DNA from: Octopus vulgaris
Taxonomy: Eukaryota
DNA: 64,000 nt
Direction of reading: 5' to 3'
Assembly: GCA_951406725.2 (NCBI GenBank)
Contig: OX597815.1
Coordinates: forward strand, 63,178,001 to 63,242,000
Below, piece by piece: positions 8,041 to 22,568 of this stretch (its first letter is position 1; every line of letters begins with the position of its first letter). Below the pieces are notes generated by a model. It saw only the letters and a list, made by a program, of their open reading frames with translations. It was not told the DNA's origin and did not search any database. The position numbers and the translations under genes were made by a program.

Positions 8041-8660
8041 GTTGTATGTTATGTATTATAAATTTGACCAGAATTTCACTTTGTTCCTCTTAACACACAC
8101 ACACACACACGCACACACACAAATGTGTCGGGTTGTGTGTGAGTGTGTGATGAACTACAAAAGGCAAAAAAGGGTACCTCATACGATTTTTAAATCCGAG
8201 TCAACACAACTATGAAGAACAACTTATATACGGATTTGAAAAATTAAATAGGGAAAGAGCTTATACACAATGCAAAAATTTCCTTTCAGAAAAAAATGTG
8301 ACTTTCTATTCAAAAATAGATTGTTTTTTAAATATAATTTATGATTTTTTTTAAAAGAAGCTCGTTGTTCAAGTAATCTGAGTGTAACATGAACGAAAAA
8401 AGAAACATACAGAACGAGTTAAAGATAAAAGAAAATAGACCCTAGTGTAACACCAGCACTATATTTCTCGAATGTGCGAGTGTGTGTAATATATATAATA
8501 CATACATACATACATACATACATACATACATACATACGTACATACATATATATATATATAGTGCCATAGTGCCCAAATTCTGACTTGAAAGACTTCACCA
8601 GGTGGTGCTATTAAGTTAGACATGGCCTGGGCCAATAATGGCCGAAACCTATCAAAGTAT

Positions 8661-8700
<40 letters not shown>

Positions 8701-12653: not shown

Positions 12654-15600
12654 GCGGTTTAGGTAATTTTGAATGCCAAAGTTTGGGACAAGACCCTCCA
12701 GGATTTTCCAGATATATATCACCGCATATCTCTCCCGCCTTCGCTCTAGGGAGAAGAGTTTTAATACTTTCAGTCTTTCCCAGTAGCTGATATGTTGCCT
12801 TGAGACGATCTTCATTGTGTAGCTTCTTTGAATTGCTTCGAGTTCAGCTGTTAGTTTTATATTGTGTGGTGACCATATTTGGGAGCAGTAGTCCAAGCGG
12901 CTGAGGACGAAAGTTTTCTACAGGACAATCAGTGTCTCCTCTCTTGTTCTGAAAGTTCGGAGAATCCATCCAGCTAGCCGTCTGCATTTTATCACCAAAT
13001 TAGTAATATGCACTTGGAAAGATGCATCATTGCTTATGTCAATGCCCAGGTCACGCACTGATTTTGACTCCGGGATTGCAATTCTTCCCGGGCCAGTGTA
13101 TCCAGTCTGCATGTCGTTTACCTTTGTGTGCTGGTAGCGCAGGGCCTGGAACTTACCTGCATTAAACTGCATGTTGTTGTCCTCAGCCCACCTGTATATT
13201 GTATCCAACTCCTGTTGCAGATGTGCAATATTTCCAGGGATTTGTATTGTGTGGGAGACTTTTGTGTCATCTGCATAGCTAGCAAGGGTGGTCATCTTAG
13301 TAACTGAGGACATGTCTGAAAGGGCCACTATGAACAGCAGTGGCCCCAAGACAGTGCCCTGTGGAACACCGCTTGTTATTTGTGTTTCATTGGAGGTGGC
13401 TCCATTGGTCACAACTGCCTGCCTTCTATCTTTTAGGAAGTTGTGCAGCCACTCTCCAAGTTTTCCGCCTATGCCGAGACCACAGAGTTTGTGACAAATC
13501 ATACAGTGGTCGACTTTATCAAAGGCTTTTGCAAAGTCGAGATATATCACATCCTCATTTGAGCCATTTAGTAGCTGTTTTAACACCCAGTCATAGTGTT
13601 GCAAGATCTGTGATAGGCAGCTTCTACCTGGTCGAAATCTATGCTAGGTGCCAGTCAGCAAGTCATTTTCTTCAAGGAACATGATTAGTTTCTTGAGGAC
13701 TATTCGTTTCATGACTTTGCTGATGTGTGAGGTCAAAGAGATAGGCCTATAATTTTTAGCGTCTGCTCTGCTTCCTCCCTTATGGATAGGACATATTACC
13801 CCCTCTTTCAATTTGACTGAGAGCTTACCACTTGCAAGAAAGCTCTGAAAAAGAAGCTGTAGCGGTTTTGCAAGAGCTCGTTTGTACGATTTGAGAAGGA
13901 TCGCTGGAAATCCATCAGGTCCAGCAGCTGAGTTTGTGTCAATTTCATCTATGGCCAGTGTGATATCATCATCTTCAATGTTGATGTACTCAATTTTTGC
14001 CTTTTTGGCCGCAGGTAAAGTGGCAAAGAATTGTTCTGGGTTGTTTACTTGCCTGTGTCTTAGAGGTGTAGTGAACACACTTTGGAACTGTTCGTTCTGT
14101 ATTTCACTTATCCTCGTGGGATTTCCTGTGAGAGAGCCATCTTTTGGAAGAGAGGTCCTATTATCTGGTGCACTGTGGCTGTCTCTTTGGCAAACTTAAA
14201 GAAAGCTTTAGGCTTTGACCTTATATTTTCTATTACCAAAGCTTCTTAAATCTGCTCTCTCCTTTTCATGAGACTGATGCAGACTTTTCTCAGTTTCCAT
14301 TAGCATTCTCTCGAGCCGAGACTTCTCACCACTTTTGGTGTGCTTGCTCAGGCGGTTCGCAATCCTTGTCCGTCGTCATATAAGAATCTTCCTTTCTCTA
14401 GGGATCCTGTTTTTGTTTTTGTGTCTGCTGGCCCTGCACACTAGGACATATTTGTCACATATGGCTTGTATTATGGATATGAAGCGTTTGTGTTTCATGT
14501 TAATGTCCGGTGTGGAGAGACATTTAGGCCAATCCTGTTTGAGGATCTCTTTCTCGATCAACTTCCAATTTGCTTTATGAAAGTTAAAGTTGGAGAGATT
14601 GTGGATGCTTCGTAAAGTCTGTGTGTCTGCGGGGGCTTTTGGTCCATACATAGACAGCTCTATTATGTTGTGATCCGAGATCATTGTCGGCATCACTTTA
14701 ACATTATGGATAATATCCATATTGTTTGTGAAGCAGAGATCCAGTATATTATCTGCCCTTGTTCGTTGCAGCACTATTTGCTCCATGAAAGAGGCATTTG
14801 TGAGATGGAGCAGGGATTCCGCCTGTGCCTTCTGATGGTATGTCATCCCTAGGAGCATCTGCCTCCCAGGCCATTCCACATTGGGGAAGTTATAGTCACC
14901 CTGTGTTGTTCCAGGTTGGTGAGAACTTCTATTTTTGTTAGGCAGTCTTCAAACATGCCTGTGTGATTTGGAGCATCCGGTGGGCGATATGTAGTACATA
15001 TGACGATATTCAGTTGTCTTATGTGTACAAATGGAATGTCACACACTGAGTTTGAATATGACAACAGGACCTGAGGCATGAGGTCATCTCGGATGTACAT
15101 TGCAACTCCACCATGGCTCCTCTCTTTTCTATCTGAGCGTAGGACAGCATATTGCGGTATGTGTATTTCTGCATCCCCTATATCGGGTCCAAGATGCGTT
15201 TCTATGAATGCCATGCATATAGCTTGATTGCATGCCGCAAGGTCTCTCAGGAATGAGAATTTGCTTTTACAGTTGCCGCGCAGCAGCTCTCCTACGTGCA
15301 GTAGAAATATTTTTGTGGTGTGTGTATTGGTGTCTGTGGTGGCCATCCTGCATCTGTTGGTAGTGGCCTTATGTGGTGGTAGTTCCAGCTTTGTGTCTGC
15401 AGCTAGGTCAGCTACTGGACAATTTTTTGTGCCATGCACAAAAAAGATTGCTGTTCAGCTTCCCATCTCACATCTGGGTGAAGCTGGCCATTTGTTGGGC
15501 TATGCAGTATCTTTTTTGGACCGCGCACAAATCCGCATATCTTCTTTCAGAAGTAGTCAGTGCGCCATTTTTCCTTCTTTTATATTTTTCTTCTTTTTGT

Positions 15601-16410
15601 GTCTATGCGGTTTTGGCAGGGCTCCTGATGTGCAAAACGACAGTTTGCACCATCGACGCCATGCTAGCAGTCTCCCTTCAGGTAGAATTTGCAGATGTTT
15701 CTGCTTTTGCCCTTGTAGATCTTACTGGGTTTCTTCTGTTTTTTTCTGAACAGTGTTTGTTTTAGTTTTCTTGTCGTTTACCTCTTGTTTTCCGTCTATT
15801 TTTGGGTGCTTTCCTTTTTTTGCGGCCATCGCACCTCTTTGGTCTTCAGTTGTGTTGGGAGCTGGACATGTGCCGTTGTTTCTCAGTTGTGTCTTTTGTT
15901 GGGTCCTGGATGCCTTCTCCATCCTTTTAGTCTTCCCTCGTGTAGTCACATCCTGGGATGATGTCCAAAGTGTCCATGTGTTGCCTGATTACAGCGTAGG
16001 AACTGAGGAACTCCAATTTCTTTCGCTCTATCTGGGTCCTCGAGAAATCATTGCTCTTAAGCGCCGCTGCAATGATATTGTATAGCGGGTCGCCCTCGGC
16101 AATTTTCCAGGCGCGGACGAACAATTGCAACTCCCTCGCAGACCAGTTTCTTGGCATCTTCACCCGAGATACACTGAGAGTGAAATAGTCGAACAGAGAG
16201 AGGGAGAGAGAGGGCGGGACAGAGAGGGAGGTGAGATGCCAGAGAGTTGAATTTGAGAGAAAGCGGGGGGGGGGGGACGCAGAAAGAGAAAGCGAGTGGA
16301 AGTTCAGTAGATGGTGGCAGGGAGAGAGAGAGAGAGAGAGAGTGCGGAATAGAGGGTCTGAGGGAGGGAGAGACAGATAAGGAGGGGAGAATGGCAAGAC
16401 AGGGATAGAA
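12654..16410 (-). mobile_element. CR1-group LINE, 5'-intact and 3'-truncated (ORF1 Myb/SANT-like plus CCCH; ORF2 APE-RT)
   Basis: ORF1 ATG at 16157 (MPRNWSARELQLFVRAW...). APE: IETHL, RSHGGVAMY, YRPP, NILDLCFTN, SDHNII. RT: NYRPISLTS, YLDFAKAFDKVDH, SGVPQGTVLGPLLF, YADDTK, LFSLERRRERY. Several stops and frameshifts. Confidence 0.9.
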
Positions 16411-17155
<745 letters not shown>

Positions 17156-18338
17156 TGTTTTTTCGGTTTTTTTTTTGTATCAACACAGAGCTGCGGCCGT
17201 GCTGATGCACCACCGTTTTGTGCTACACTGTTATTACGAAGAGTTTCCTCTAATATGTGGCACTTGGTGAAGAATGGAGGTTGATATAGCTACTCTCATT
17301 TGCACCTCTTGCCGTGACGTAGGTTCAAATGGGACTCTCGACAGGAAGATGTCCAGCTTTGATTTAAAAACCGCTACATCTACTTTGTGCAAGTTCCTCA
17401 GACTCTTTGGGATAATATTAAAAAGCTGTGGGCCCTTGAAACACAGGTTGTTACAGTAGCTGGTCTTGAAGCGTGATGGCATTGCTGGGATCTTTGGCAC
17501 TATGCAGTGTCGTCCCGTTCTAGCATTGGTGTAGCTTTCAATGCCAGAATTTTGCACAATTCCTTCCAGGATTTCCAGAAATATATTACTGCATACATCT
17601 CCCGTCTTCTCTCCAGGGATTAGAGTCTTGGCTGTTTCAACCTTTCCTAGTAGCTGAGCTGTTGCAAAGAGACGATCTTCTTTTTGAATCTTCTCTGGAT
17701 TGCTTCAAGGTCCGCTGTTAATCTAACACTGGTGGGTGACCATAGCTGTGAGCAGTAATCCAGGCGGCTGAGGACGAATGTCCGCCAGAGGATCATGATG
17801 GTTTTTTTATCTCTGGTTCTGAATGTTCTTAGGATCCATCCAGCCGGTCGTCTGCACTTTGTCGCCATCCTGGTAATGTGCACTTGGAAAGAGGTATCAT
17901 CACTCATGTCGATACCCAGGTCCCTCACAGACTTAGGCTATGGAATTGAAATTCCCTGTTGACCGGTGTATCCTGTAAGTTTAATATTCAGCTTTGGCTG
18001 CTGGTAGCGCAGGGCCTGGAATTTTTCAGCATTAAACTGCATATTAATACCCTCAGCTCATCGGTAGATTGAGTACAACTCCTGCTGTAGGTGTGCAACA
18101 TCGCTGGGGTTCTGTGTTTTCTGCGAGACTTTCGTATCGTCTGCATAGCTTGCCAGAGTGGCTATCCGGGCATTTGAGGGCATATCTGAGAGGGCCACTA
18201 AAAGAAGCAGTGGTATCAGGACAGTGCCCTGTGGAACACCGCTCACTATTTGTGTGTCCATTAACCACTACTGCCTGACTCCAATCTTTCAGGAAGTCAT
18301 GTAACCACACTCAGAGTTTTCCAGCTATGCCGAGGTCA

Positions 18339-18342
<4 letters not shown>
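17156..18342 (-). mobile_element. CR1-group LINE, 5'-truncated 3' fragment
   Basis: SGVPQGTVL, YADDTK, RDLGI, LSRLDYCSQLWSP and KGPQLFNIIP motifs, stop at 17234, short 3' UTR and A-rich tail; flanked by (TA)n on both sides. Confidence 0.9.
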
Positions 18343-18383: not shown

Positions 18384-20786
18384 GGCATTCGTCGTGACAA
18401 GACGTACTTTCAATAGCTCCGGTGAAAGTCAGTAGTCAAAGAAGCATATTTCAACTCAAGCCAGCAGAAACTCTCCTTGTTTTTAGTTCCAGTACTTTTG
18501 AATTCTTCAATTCTACTATCCTACTCTTTTACTACCATCGGAGGATAAATTTATACAAATCTATATACAACCTGGAGAAAGAAATATAAACCAAAACTAA
18601 ACCCAAGACTAGTTCTAAAACTAGTCCCGTGAGTACAATTCTTTTTCCCTGATCTGTATTAAACTCACCGCTCATCCTGATTTGTACTAAATACACTGAA
18701 CTCTCCCACACACACTCAGATATAGCCACGCATTTCCGTATATATCGACACGAACCTTTCAACGGTGTTTTCACTATTATACATCAAGCCATAAATAACT
18801 AAAATATAGTGTATAATACTGCCCCACTGAATATGGCCAATAATATTAAAAAACGCCACTGGGTTGAAAATGAAATCACTGCAATGATAAACGCTTGGTA
18901 CACTCACCACAATGAAGCTAATGTTTACAGCAAAATAGCTGAAAAATTAGCAAAACAATCCTTTCACAGATTTGTAAAACAGATCGAAAATAAAATAAAA
19001 GATATTGTAAGAATATTTCCTATTTTCCACACGCACATGGCAACACTAGAAGCCATCCTTGTCAATGAATTTAGAGCACCAAATGACCCAACTCCAACAG
19101 GTCAGGGGTCACTTCAACGACCCGATAGCCAGTAACAAACATCTGACCTCATTCCACCCATTCCACAGGACTCATCACAACAGCAGCAGCCTGCCTCTGC
19201 TACTACATCACCAGTACCTGACACGATTCCACCTAGCCCTGCTGTTGCAAGTCAAGTTTCACTGCTGCTACAGCAATAACAACACTCTGCTACTGTTACT
19301 ACAGCCAGAATAGAAAAATCACCAATACACCCATATCAAACACCCTGCCGTTACTATTCTCAAGGCAACTGTAGATTTGGCCCCAGCGGCACCAACAACA
19401 AGGGACGCTGTGCTTTTTTCCATCCTACCTTATGTCGTAGACTTGTTAAGGGCACCTGTCCATATGGTATAACGGGAAAAAACTGCCCTCACCTCCACCC
19501 CAAATACTGTCCTAAATACAGAGTCCATAGTCCTGATCCCAAATATGGATGCACAAAAGGCAATGGATGCACCTTCTTCCATCCTAAACTGTGCCAAACT
19601 TCTGTGTCACTAAGGATGTACCTGAACCCAGAATGCAACCACCACTATCTGAAGGGCACAAAACGATCGCAAAATAAATATAAACAGCAGCAGATAAGAT
19701 CTTCGACAACAATAAAAACAAAATACAACCACGTTTCCCCTACTACAATCAAACAACGAAGACAGAACCATGAAAAAACCATAACACCAAATAACATAAA
19801 CATGAAATATGTATCCTCTGACCAAGTGGCAAACCAAAGAGGTAACTCTTTTTTACTGACCTACCTAGAAAATATGAAGGCCGACCTAAGCCAGGAGATC
19901 CAACGAGCTATCAGCAACCAGCCATGCAAATCACAAGGACCACACACCCACTACCAACAAGAAAATCACACATACACAGCTCCATACAAGAACTACCCAC
20001 ATTGTTACCACTGAACAACATAAAACACAACTTAGAACAATGCAAACATCAAACTTCCCTTACCTCGACATTCCTGTTAAATGTACGTGGCATCAACCCA
20101 TCAATTATTGCCCAAAAATGGAAGATCCCACATATAGAGAGTTGGCTTGCCGAAACAGCACGTTGCTTCCCTTTCTTTATCCTTACCGAGACTCACCTGA
20201 ACAACACCCATATGGACGCCGAGGTGAAAATAAAAGATTTCACCATTGTTCGTGCGGATCGCACAGACCGAAATAAGGGAGGGACAGCCATCTTTATCCA
20301 TGATTCCTTTTCACTTGATGCCAAGGACATATTTTCCAATGGCTATTGTGAATCTGTATCACTATTCAGCAAGGCCAAGGACATAATCATTGTTGGTCTT
20401 TACAGGCCTCCCCAAGCACCTCTAAAGTGCTTTGAAGAGTGCCTTAGCAAAGTCAAGTCCTTCCTTCGGAAGTACAACTCCGGAAACATACTAGTGATGG
20501 GTGATTTTAACCTCCCTCATGTGAACTGGCCCTCAAATACTCTGAAGTTAGGCAAATGCTCTACATCAGATAGAGCAGCAGCAGAACTGCTCTTTAATCT
20601 AATGGATGAATACTTCCTAACTCAGCTAGTGCTCGAACCAACGAGACAGAATAAAACGATCTTGGATCTGGTATTGACCAATCACTCTAGCTTCGTTCAC
20701 AGTATTTCAGTTGAAAAAACTCTCCTCTCAGACCACGACATGGTACTCTGCAACTTTAATTCCCGACATATAAAAACCAAAAAATT
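18381..20786 (+). mobile_element. CR1-group LINE 5' half (5' UTR, ORF1, APE domain); RT missing
   Basis: ORF1 from ATG 18833 (KRHWVENEITAMINAW...YSKIAEKL..QIENKIK) with CCCH repeats at 19345-19650; APE domain follows. Confidence 0.9.
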
Positions 20787-20856
20787 CGTAAAGATACTCC
20801 CAACGAATTCGATGTGCGTATGGGTAGTTCAGATAGCGCGCAGATTGCCGATTTGA
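19924..20856 (+). CDS. LINE ORF2 apurinic-like endonuclease (APE) domain, truncated
   Basis: LLNVRG, LTETHL, RADR..KGGTAIF, YRPP, MGDFN, LDLVLTN and SDHDMV motifs, uninterrupted; the frame is open from 19846. Confidence 0.85.
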   Translation: MQITRTTHPLPTRKSHIHSSIQELPTLLPLNNIKHNLEQCKHQTSLTSTFLLNVRGINPSIIAQKWKIPHIESWLAETARCFPFFILTETHLNNTHMDAEVKIKDFTIVRADRTDRNKGGTAIFIHDSFSLDAKDIFSNGYCESVSLFSKAKDIIIVGLYRPPQAPLKCFEECLSKVKSFLRKYNSGNILVMGDFNLPHVNWPSNTLKLGKCSTSDRAAAELLFNLMDEYFLTQLVLEPTRQNKTILDLVLTNHSSFVHSISVEKTLLSDHDMVLCNFNSRHIKTKKFVKILPTNSMCVWVVQIARRLPI

Positions 20857-22568
20857 TCGGAATCTATATTCTCTACGAATTATCCGACCAGTTCCCGGAT
20901 ATCGGGGGCGGCCTATATCGTGACGATTGTCTGTTTTACCTACAAAACACCCCGAACAGAATCGTACAGAAAACTAAAAACAGATTAGCTAGGTTCTTTA
21001 ATAGGATGGGCATGAGTATAGTTTTTGATAACGAACTTACTAAGGCTAATTTCTTAGATGTCACACTAAACCTCCATAGCGATTCTTACTGCCCTTACCA
21101 TAAGCCTTCCACTAACTTAAAGTATGTCAGTGTCTTCTCGAATCACGCTAAAACTATAATAGACAATTTGGTTAAACATATTTCTCAAAGATTAACTAAT
21201 TTGTCTGCCAATGTCGACATTTTTAGGCAGAAAGCGGAATTTTATAATGCCGCCCTGTCTAAAGCCGGTTATAGGGAGAAGGTAGTATATATAGATCCGG
21301 CCCTTCCGATGCCAGCATTCTGTCATCAGGATAGGGCCGGCTACAATAACATAAATAATTTAAGTAGTGATGGTAGCCTGAGGAATGTCGAAACAAGTAC
21401 ATCTAGAATAAATTTAGGTAACATAAATAATTTGCGGTCCAGGGGAGGCCATAGTAAGCCAAAACCTATTATTCAACCTAGAAATACCCACCTTAATGTC
21501 AGAGTTGACTCCCCGACCCAGTACAAAAACAGGAATAAATATATTTGGTTTGTAATTCCCTTTGGTAAACAAATAAGATCTAATCTACCTCTGCAGTTTC
21601 GCCAAGCCATTGCCAGTAATTTTCCCAGAAATTCCAGATATTACGCCACTGTTAACTCACACAAAGTTAGGATAGCCTTCTCCAACACTAAGAATCTCTC
21701 ACAGATAATTTCCTCCCATAACAATAAGCTGCTAAATAAGACCCTCTCACCCTCGGTCGGAGACGCAGCTCCGTCTAATGCCAGAATAACGCGCAGTAAT
21801 AATAATAATAATAATGATAATAGAACCGACACGGAGATTAGCAATCTCCATACCAGCCATGGAGTTAATAATAGGAATAAGGATAGGAGCAATGGTGACG
21901 ACACTAGCGTTAGTAATGGTAATAGGGATGAGAGCACTGTCCGAGTCATTAATGTAGAGAGTCCCAATAACACTTTTAGCAACGGTTTTGGCAACAGTAG
22001 CATCACGGACATTAGCAATCACAGCGATCTCAGTGGCAGGGAATATACAGGTGATATTCCATTAAATAGTATTGATAATGGGGTGTATAATGTCGAAGAC
22101 ACCCGCAGTTCTCACAATCATCATAGTAATAAGAACGCCGTATTAATATCTGAAGCCAATCCCAATAGAATAAGGTTCTTATCTAGTAATTCCAAGATTA
22201 GAAATGCCATTTACCAATGCAGAGTTTATACTGAATCAGATGTCTACTTGTATATCGGAGCGTCATCATCAAAATTGGCCGTGAGAATATCGAACCACTT
22301 CACAACATTTCGCGATTTTAGAAAACAACACGCGACCGGACTAAGTAAATTGATCTGGCGTTTGAAGAACGCGAATTCAGCATTTAGACTGGAATGGTCG
22401 ATTTTATCGGTGTCTGTACCGTTTGATAGAGGCAAAAAAATCTGTAATCTCTGCAACTCTGAACTTTTTCACATTTTATTCGCCCGAGGGCAGCTAGTTA
22501 ACGCGATTTTGCAAAACTCTTTCAGATGTCCCCATTGGAGGCGGCACACATTTCTTGCATACAATTGA
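20814..22568 (+). CDS. PLE reverse transcriptase (C-terminal half) plus GIY-YIG endonuclease
   Basis: FDVRMGSSDSAQIADLIG, GLYRDD, NFLDVTL, YVSVFSNH, AIYQC..LYIG, R..NH..F, LSKLIWRLK, CNLC and CPH motifs; 584 codons without a stop, but the N-terminal RT motifs are absent. Confidence 0.85.
   Translation: MRMGSSDSAQIADLIGIYILYELSDQFPDIGGGLYRDDCLFYLQNTPNRIVQKTKNRLARFFNRMGMSIVFDNELTKANFLDVTLNLHSDSYCPYHKPSTNLKYVSVFSNHAKTIIDNLVKHISQRLTNLSANVDIFRQKAEFYNAALSKAGYREKVVYIDPALPMPAFCHQDRAGYNNINNLSSDGSLRNVETSTSRINLGNINNLRSRGGHSKPKPIIQPRNTHLNVRVDSPTQYKNRNKYIWFVIPFGKQIRSNLPLQFRQAIASNFPRNSRYYATVNSHKVRIAFSNTKNLSQIISSHNNKLLNKTLSPSVGDAAPSNARITRSNNNNNNDNRTDTEISNLHTSHGVNNRNKDRSNGDDTSVSNGNRDESTVRVINVESPNNTFSNGFGNSSITDISNHSDLSGREYTGDIPLNSIDNGVYNVEDTRSSHNHHSNKNAVLISEANPNRIRFLSSNSKIRNAIYQCRVYTESDVYLYIGASSSKLAVRISNHFTTFRDFRKQHATGLSKLIWRLKNANSAFRLEWSILSVSVPFDRGKKICNLCNSELFHILFARGQLVNAILQNSFRCPHWRRHTFLAYN

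Follow-up and report, generated by a model that had tools for sequence, protein, structure and literature searches.

Features of the Locus and Its Two LINE Copies

The window analyzed here is a stretch of 64,000 nucleotides of Octopus vulgaris DNA. It carries dead copies of two LINE families on opposite strands, A1 and B, together with a Penelope-like reading frame that starts at the end of the first (Table 1). The CCCH matches to Pfam in the A1 ORF1 fall under the curated cut-offs, and the stop codons at 19133 and 19277 in this ORF1 are specific to the window copy. The window copy of family B is broken by several stops and frame breaks.

Table 1. Features of the two LINE copies and the adjoining reading frame in the window
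Feature	Position	Strand	Remark
LINE of family A1 (CR1-group), 5′ part; dead copy ending within ORF2	18588..20781	+	blastn against intact sister L100
ORF1 of A1: Myb/SANT-like N terminus, CCCH fingers, Gln/Pro-rich tail	18833..20014	+
CCCH zinc-finger array in A1 ORF1	19343..19669	+
TAA closing the −1 frame upstream of the heptamer, element A	19843..19845	+	dispensable: 25/30 copies
Predicted −1 shift site, slippery heptamer T_TTT_TTA in ORF1 phase	19849..19855	+
Stop-free −1 linker from heptamer to APE motif 1, overlapping the ORF1 tail	19846..20076	+
In-frame ATG of ORF2, rival start, element A	19924..19926	+	87 nt upstream of ORF1 stop
APE endonuclease domain, ORF2 of element A	20077..20781	+	Pfam PF14529, E 1e-15
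Penelope-like ORF: RT-like part and GIY-YIG-like C terminus; begins where element A ends	20760..22568	+
LINE of family B, dead copy; older relative of young family G	12657..16157	−
Slippery heptamer T_TTT_TTG in ORF1 phase, element B	15439..15445	−
TGA closing the −1 frame upstream, element B	15455..15457	−	28/30 copies
In-frame ATG, rival start in strong context, element B	15344..15346	−	GTG at same position in G1 and H

The first-pass annotation had described, in element A, a T_TTT_TTA heptamer in ORF1 phase and a −1 frame that is closed by a TAA just upstream and then open into the APE domain, and had reported the same layout on the minus strand around T_TTT_TTG, behind a TGA. Both arrangements were confirmed in the window, the −1 frame of element A being open from 19846 to 20856. 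The residues encoded over the heptamer are N-S-F-L in element A and Q-S-F-L in element B. The heptamer is a property of both LINE families, and both window copies are dead.

Further repeat fragments were seen in the window, namely a second B/G-like 3′ fragment at 17264–18342 on the minus strand and a D-like 3′ tail at 8563–8664 on the plus strand. The 3′ ends of families A, D, G, and H (L100, L157, L242, and L252) have a common tail, GGYGGTGC ... CATGGCC ... GAAAC, followed by short tandem repeats, and copies of family D sit within (TA)n microsatellites. The Penelope-like frame comprises 602 codons with a long Asn-rich linker; a Pfam search with it gave no match, and its RT-like and GIY-YIG-like parts are presumed from sequence motifs.

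Conservation of the Heptamer Within and Between Families

Copies were surveyed in the 2.8-Gb host genome, in which family A gave 652 first-look candidates. The heptamer was present in 28 of the 30 A1 copies fetched and, in the young subfamily A2, which has an intact ORF1 and ORF2, it was in phase in 54 of 61 pattern matches (hand count). Family B had T_TTT_TTN in 25/30 copies, and family C had its heptamer in 18/19. In families D and G1, the T6 run that makes up the heptamer was found in 68 among the first 100 of 331 matches (hand count) and in 70 among the first 100 of 197, respectively. The last base (Z) is G in most B and G copies. Family H had A_AAT_TTT in 29 of 30 fetched copies, which had been chosen by similarity to one carrier; L252, a member of H fetched separately, lacks the site. 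The proposed conservation of the heptamer and its phase among family copies was thus borne out by the A1, A2, and B counts. Given that dead copies of one family share descent, their agreement is not evidence of selection, and the test against chance therefore lies between families. The nearby upstream stop, listed for the same check, fared less well: the A1 TAA was retained in 25 of 30 fetched copies, with CAA in the other 5, and in H the −1 frame opens 21 codons from the heptamer. As a conserved piece of the signal it was therefore rejected.

Families C, D, G, and H came to light when distant ORF1s, Pfam APE models, and the endonuclease of family C were used as queries, and L298, a CCCH-ORF1 element of another host, was taken from LINE contigs contaminating prokaryotic assemblies. 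A quick tree of 19 rows, built without named reference elements and with B left out as broken, placed seven ORF2s from the A, C, D, G, H, and L298 lineages in one clade (SH-aLRT 100). The ORF1s of the clade are of the CCCH-finger type, that of family C also giving a weak PHD-like match. Traits of CR1/L2 elements (Jockey superfamily) are present, namely two ORFs, an ORF2 with APE and RT, and a short 3′ tail; we tentatively take the clade to be CR1-group from its sequence motifs and from its separation in the tree from the Tx1-type rows. Among database proteins, near-identical matches to family C carry the label Octopus vulgaris, and one CCCH-ORF1 database protein is labeled Mnemiopsis leidyi. 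A metagenome scan with the window APE returned a single weak, unusable match, and two scans of viral contigs found no relatives.

Between families, ORF2 identity is 32–65% and four-fold sites are 21–43% identical, so that silent sites are near saturation. Each of the six lineages (A, B/G, C, D, H, and L298) has exactly one in-phase canonical X_XXY_YYZ heptamer in the ORF1/ORF2 overlap: T_TTT_TTA in A, C, and D, T_TTT_TTG in G, A_AAT_TTT in H, and A_AAA_AAC in L298. It lies 1 codon after the opening of the −1 frame in A, 4 in D, 2 in C, 3 in B/G, 21 in H, and 7 in L298, and ORF1 runs on for 37–72 codons past it. In H, the sister of B/G, the residues are R-N-F and A_AAT_TTT lies one codon upstream of the site in G, with an ORF1 helix that aligns with that of G; the switched heptamer of H is the most telling case.

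In-phase canonical heptamers occurred at 32 of 5853 ORF2 codons (∼0.55%), and T_TTT_TTN at 1 of 5853. With a limit of 25 codons, a value chosen after the data had been seen, the chance of a heptamer within 25 codons of the −1 opening is 0.15 per lineage, 1e-5 for all six lineages, and 5e-4 for the four deepest. Given S-F-L and the codon use of each family, the probability of T_TTT_TTR is 0.027 in A, 0.022 in C, 0.020 in D, and 0.018 in G; TTR makes up only 8–25% of Leu codons in these four families. Codon choice alone is weak for H (0.15) and L298 (0.28). As a control, 1 of 42 F-L or F-F dipeptides in ORF2 reads T_TTT_TT, a count in which G1 and G2 are not independent. A second control, the last 25 codons of Tx1-type ORF1s, contained A-rich in-phase heptamers in 2 of 5 cases, and a heptamer near the end of ORF1 is therefore not rare in itself. 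The codon-choice test, the ORF2 dipeptide control, and the heptamer switch together argue that the heptamer is kept beyond what the protein sequence needs.

The motif was also sought at the protein level only, among 74 database ORF1 proteins, of which 66, with a CCCH array and a tail that could be used, fell into 57 clusters. F-L or F-F was found in the tails of 44 clusters (16 expected), and in none of the 44 does Q, E, K, M, or W, residues for which no codon ends in T, stand directly ahead of it (background 26%, p ∼2e-6). One weak match, P0074, has E ahead of F-F. Thirteen of the 57 clusters lack the motif by the pattern used, several of them with N-F or K-F. The residue ahead of F-L is mostly S, H, N, or D, which are typical helix caps, and a helix N-cap preference could lie behind part of the protein-level pattern. 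As compared across lineages, the heptamer is a real, selected feature of this LINE clade.

Downstream Region, Start Codons, and Run-length Variants

A stimulatory hairpin or pseudoknot had been proposed as a check on the site. In a stem scan of 13 junctions, no stem opening 4–10 nt downstream of the heptamer beat its shuffles; the best, in A2, was matched by 5% of them. Covariation or compensatory changes were not found in the B/G/H junctions, and longer downstream hairpins were seen only in H (z −3.6) and D (z −2.6). Pairing of the 3′ tail just behind the heptamer stood out only in D, where it was the best of 57 windows and occurred in 1 of 3 query windows; given that this is 1 of 7 families, a general stimulator of this kind was rejected. 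The site resembles a −1 signal but lacks a stimulator ∼5–9 nt downstream, which belongs to the definition of the canonical cassette.

The ORF2 start codons differ among families. The −1 frame of C, D, and H has its first Met only within APE (+142, +125, and +75, with motif 1 at +73, +59, and +62, respectively), and there is no ATG ahead of the endonuclease. An in-frame ATG ahead of APE is present in A (30/30), B (29/30), G1, G2, and L298. Its position varies, the first being at +22 in G1 and +38 in G2. The A1 ATG has a weak context, with a pyrimidine at −3 in 27/30 copies. The ATG of B aligns with an ATG in G2 and with GTG codons in G1 and H, and a strong context, A-G-G-(A/G)TG-G, is common to B, G1, G2, and H at this position. 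Initiation of ORF2 at ATG 19924 or 15346 had been named as the outcome that would count against a fusion; both ATGs are the family state, and either could serve as an in-frame start.

Where present, the ATGs of the clade lie 45–96 nt upstream of the ORF1 stop, and an overlapping stop-start of the SART1 type (UAAUG) joining ORF1 and ORF2 is absent from the clade. In the Tx1-type element L222, ORF2 lacks an ATG and any overlap with ORF1 (2393–2416; no Met before residue 171, and a gap of 19 nt), and CR1 family F has neither an ATG nor a canonical in-phase heptamer. A missing ATG alone is therefore not diagnostic. A stop-free −1 linker between heptamer and APE has a chance of 0.005 in C and 0.008 in D, and of only 0.06–0.42 in the remaining families, with the background of H skewed by a microsatellite.

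The length of the T run varies among young copies of some families. Among the first 100 of 331 D matches (hand count), 68 had T6, 19 T5, 10 T4, 2 T7, and 1 another form; the corresponding values among the first 100 of 197 G1 matches were 70, 25, 2, 1, and 2. A quarter to a third of the young copies of D and G are thus T5, T4, or T7. The same length variants turn up repeatedly, on different T6 haplotypes and at independent insertion sites, and the idea that T4 or T5 are separate lineages was rejected, given their interspersion with T6 haplotypes. Variation is small in C (0/28) and A2 (6/61). In D, the other A6/A7 runs are variable in no more than 3 of 28 copies, and an A7 run in G1 varies like the T run. 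The variable runs (D, G, and B) are those predicted to pair in a bulged hairpin (D z −5.9, G2 z −2.4), a pairing that would favor deletion at the run, in copying or in sequencing.

T4 and T7 put ORF1 and ORF2 into one frame. Fused open frames of 1417 and 1468 codons were found in two D copies and one of 1439 codons in an A2 copy. T4 copies account for 18 of 331 in D (family D junction, L387–L466), and all 18 keep the ORF1 start, as compared with 24 of 41 T6 copies (one-sided p 0.0005); in a held-out D set, the values were 8/8 and 15/23 (p 0.06). This link was not repeated in G1, where the start was kept in 2 of 5 T4 and 10 of 15 T6 copies, and the notion that fused copies are more often full length was rejected as a general rule. 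The link in D is not counted as support. D copies with T5 (e.g. L157, 3292) end ORF1 at TTT-TAG with ORF2 in +1, a layout resembling a shifty stop.

Predicted −1 Frameshifting and Its Alternatives

The best reading of these data, held at a probability of about 0.72, is low-level −1 ribosomal frameshifting at the heptamer that yields an ORF1-ORF2 fusion. A small share of ribosomes would slip back by one base at the heptamer, at the start of the overlap, and most would finish ORF1 37–72 codons further on. The resulting fusion would supply the endonuclease and reverse transcriptase, and ribosomal slippage of this kind would be the main route to ORF2 protein. In the first-pass annotation, the fusion was likened to gag-pol. 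The heptamer and its phase, present in six lineages, support that proposal; the upstream stop, the stimulator, and exclusion of the ATG do not, and the fusion itself is predicted. Given that a standard 3′ stimulator was not found at these junctions, the rate is probably low, or dependent on, for example, a bound protein or the nascent peptide. A bare U_UUU_UUA has a low basal frameshift rate, and U_UUU_UUG, with Z = G, is a poorer slip site in eukaryotes. A low basal rate may be enough for ORF2 supply, the demand for ORF2 protein being small, as argued in PMC3894237.

The strongest competitor, itself unlikely, is that ribosomes start within ORF1, at an ATG or a near-cognate codon, and so make a separate ORF2 protein, in the manner of L1 and SART1, with x-F-L kept as the start motif of an amphipathic helix. 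The in-frame ATGs of A, B, G, and L298 favor it, as do the shared A-G-G-(A/G)TG-G context, which keeps it alive for the B, G1, G2, and H branch, the helix-cap preference for residues such as those at x, the AUG-less, non-overlapping ORF2 of L222 in the same genome, and the tolerance of L1 ORF2 to loss of its ATG reported in PMC1965478. However, it leaves the choice of TTT and TTR in four families unexplained, along with the heptamer switch of H and the stop-free linkers of C and D, and reinitiation would have to go back 45–96 nt from the ORF1 stop to the ATG.

Slippage of RNA polymerase on the T run is less probable still; transcripts with one more or two fewer U would then read ORF1 and ORF2 in frame. 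The variable run lengths of young D and G1 copies, recurring across haplotypes, and the retention of the ORF1 start in D T4 copies point this way. Against it, H and L298 have no long run, the full-length link is absent in G1, the run is nearly invariant in C and A2, the A7 run of G1 is equally variable, and the variable runs are the hairpin-paired ones, in which deletion would be favored. A use of the T run as the pyrimidine tract of a splice acceptor, giving a spliced ORF2 message, would suit C and D, where T6 directly precedes AG; it is very improbable, with no AG there in A, B, G, and H and with the family C site crossed without a joint in contigs from 3 of 4 probable RNA runs (their RNA status being a guess), the only joint in such contigs being a 51-nt repeat unit. 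Equally improbable is that the run persists because it forms one side of an RNA hairpin serving some other purpose, for instance packaging or pausing: predicted hairpins of B, G, and D do include the heptamer in their paired part, but A, C, H, and L298 have no significant hairpin, compensatory changes were not seen, and a hairpin has no need of the reading phase.

With the gag-pol junctions of retroviruses and LTR elements, as set out in the accessible part of PMC5009743, the octopus elements share an enzyme ORF placed in −1 behind a structural ORF, and an in-phase X_XXY_YYZ. They differ in being non-LTR, with no protease seen that would cut the fusion, in lacking a 3′ stem or pseudoknot at the usual spacing, and in the continuation of ORF1 for 37–72 codons. 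In the same part of that review, HeT-A and TART are the only non-LTR elements mentioned in connection with frameshifting. The first-pass annotation had held that studied non-LTR elements use reinitiation or coupling. Frameshifting nonetheless has a precedent in LINEs, in that a review, PMC5911963, states that ORF2 of the Dictyostelium elements TRE5-A and TRE3-A requires a −1 frameshift. These elements are likewise non-LTR, but belong to another LINE group in an amoeba host, and the statement gives no slippery site.

The clade resembles L1 and SART1, as far as the accessible parts of PMC2881922 and PMC3894237 describe them, in a bicistronic RNA and in low-level ORF2 that depends on ORF1 translation. 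In those elements, ORF2 is reached by reinitiation or through a UAAUG stop-start, and the ORFs overlap little or not at all, whereas the octopus clade has a 37–72-codon overlap and three ATG-less families. In its accessible part, PMC3894237 treats LINE ORF2 translation as an open question and discusses reinitiation, IRESs, and 2A peptides, but not frameshifting. The CR1/L2 ORF1 types I–V of PMC4120745, in the part available, go with a Jockey/CR1-group APE-RT ORF2, as here, and the weak PHD-like match in family C is a further likeness; the types listed there comprise RRM, CCHC, PHD, esterase, and Tnp22, and the Myb/SANT-like plus CCCH arrangement is not among them. The words C3H, frameshift, and overlap are absent from the main text of PMC4120745, and frameshift from that of PMC13343379, PMC11203168, and PMC5633606; PMC1925062 refers to decay frameshifts only. 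Slippery sites in this clade were not described in the literature searched.

With a defined site of seven bases, in an animal LINE clade that is widespread and has young intact copies, the question of ORF2 translation becomes testable. If the frameshift reading is true, an ORF1-ORF2 fusion would join the enzyme with the protein that coats the RNA, a point of relevance to cis preference and to the assembly of particles. Annotation would also be affected, given that these ORF2s would have no start codon; a database model, P0007, joins ORF1 to the endonuclease by a different route. It is tentatively proposed, at somewhat less than even odds, that recoding is normal for CR1-group ORF2, the CCCH clade (ctenophore to octopus) using a stimulator-poor −1 shift, possibly tuned by its RNA-binding ORF1 protein, to form a gag-pol-like ORF1-ORF2 fusion, and its sisters other −1, +1, or readthrough signals.

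Outside the clade, family E (L142, L143, and L154) has G_GGA_AAC right before the ORF1 stop and ORF2 in −1. It has no ATG ahead of APE and a strong hairpin (z −4.9) ∼35 nt downstream of G_GGA_AAC, with a CTG ∼17 nt before the hairpin as a rival start. A set of 35 LINE-bearing, probably eukaryotic stretches (L292–L326) was found in species-representative assemblies of bacteria and archaea and is most likely contamination. Among them, as single copies, are CR1-group LINEs of other hosts with ORF2 in −1, short overlaps, and in-phase heptamers, T_TTT_TTA in L297 (480) and A_AAA_AAC in L303 (1069 and 1084). Other single copies show ORF2 in −1 with an early ATG and no heptamer (L296), ORF2 in +1 (L293, L299, L301, and L312), or ORF2 in frame behind a single stop (L294, L300/L307, and L319). 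Possible +1 frameshift sites, TTT-C, lie ahead of ORF2 in L293 (∼1065) and L299 (∼2530), and a single TGA ahead of an in-frame ORF2 in L294 (679), L300 (353), and L319 (3893) is a possible readthrough site. All five Tx1/L1-type families (L222, L224, L226, L228, and L235) have a GTAAGT resembling a 5′ splice site at or within ∼40 nt of the ORF1 stop; it is a possible donor, or a possible U1 binding site, through which ORF2 expression would be controlled.
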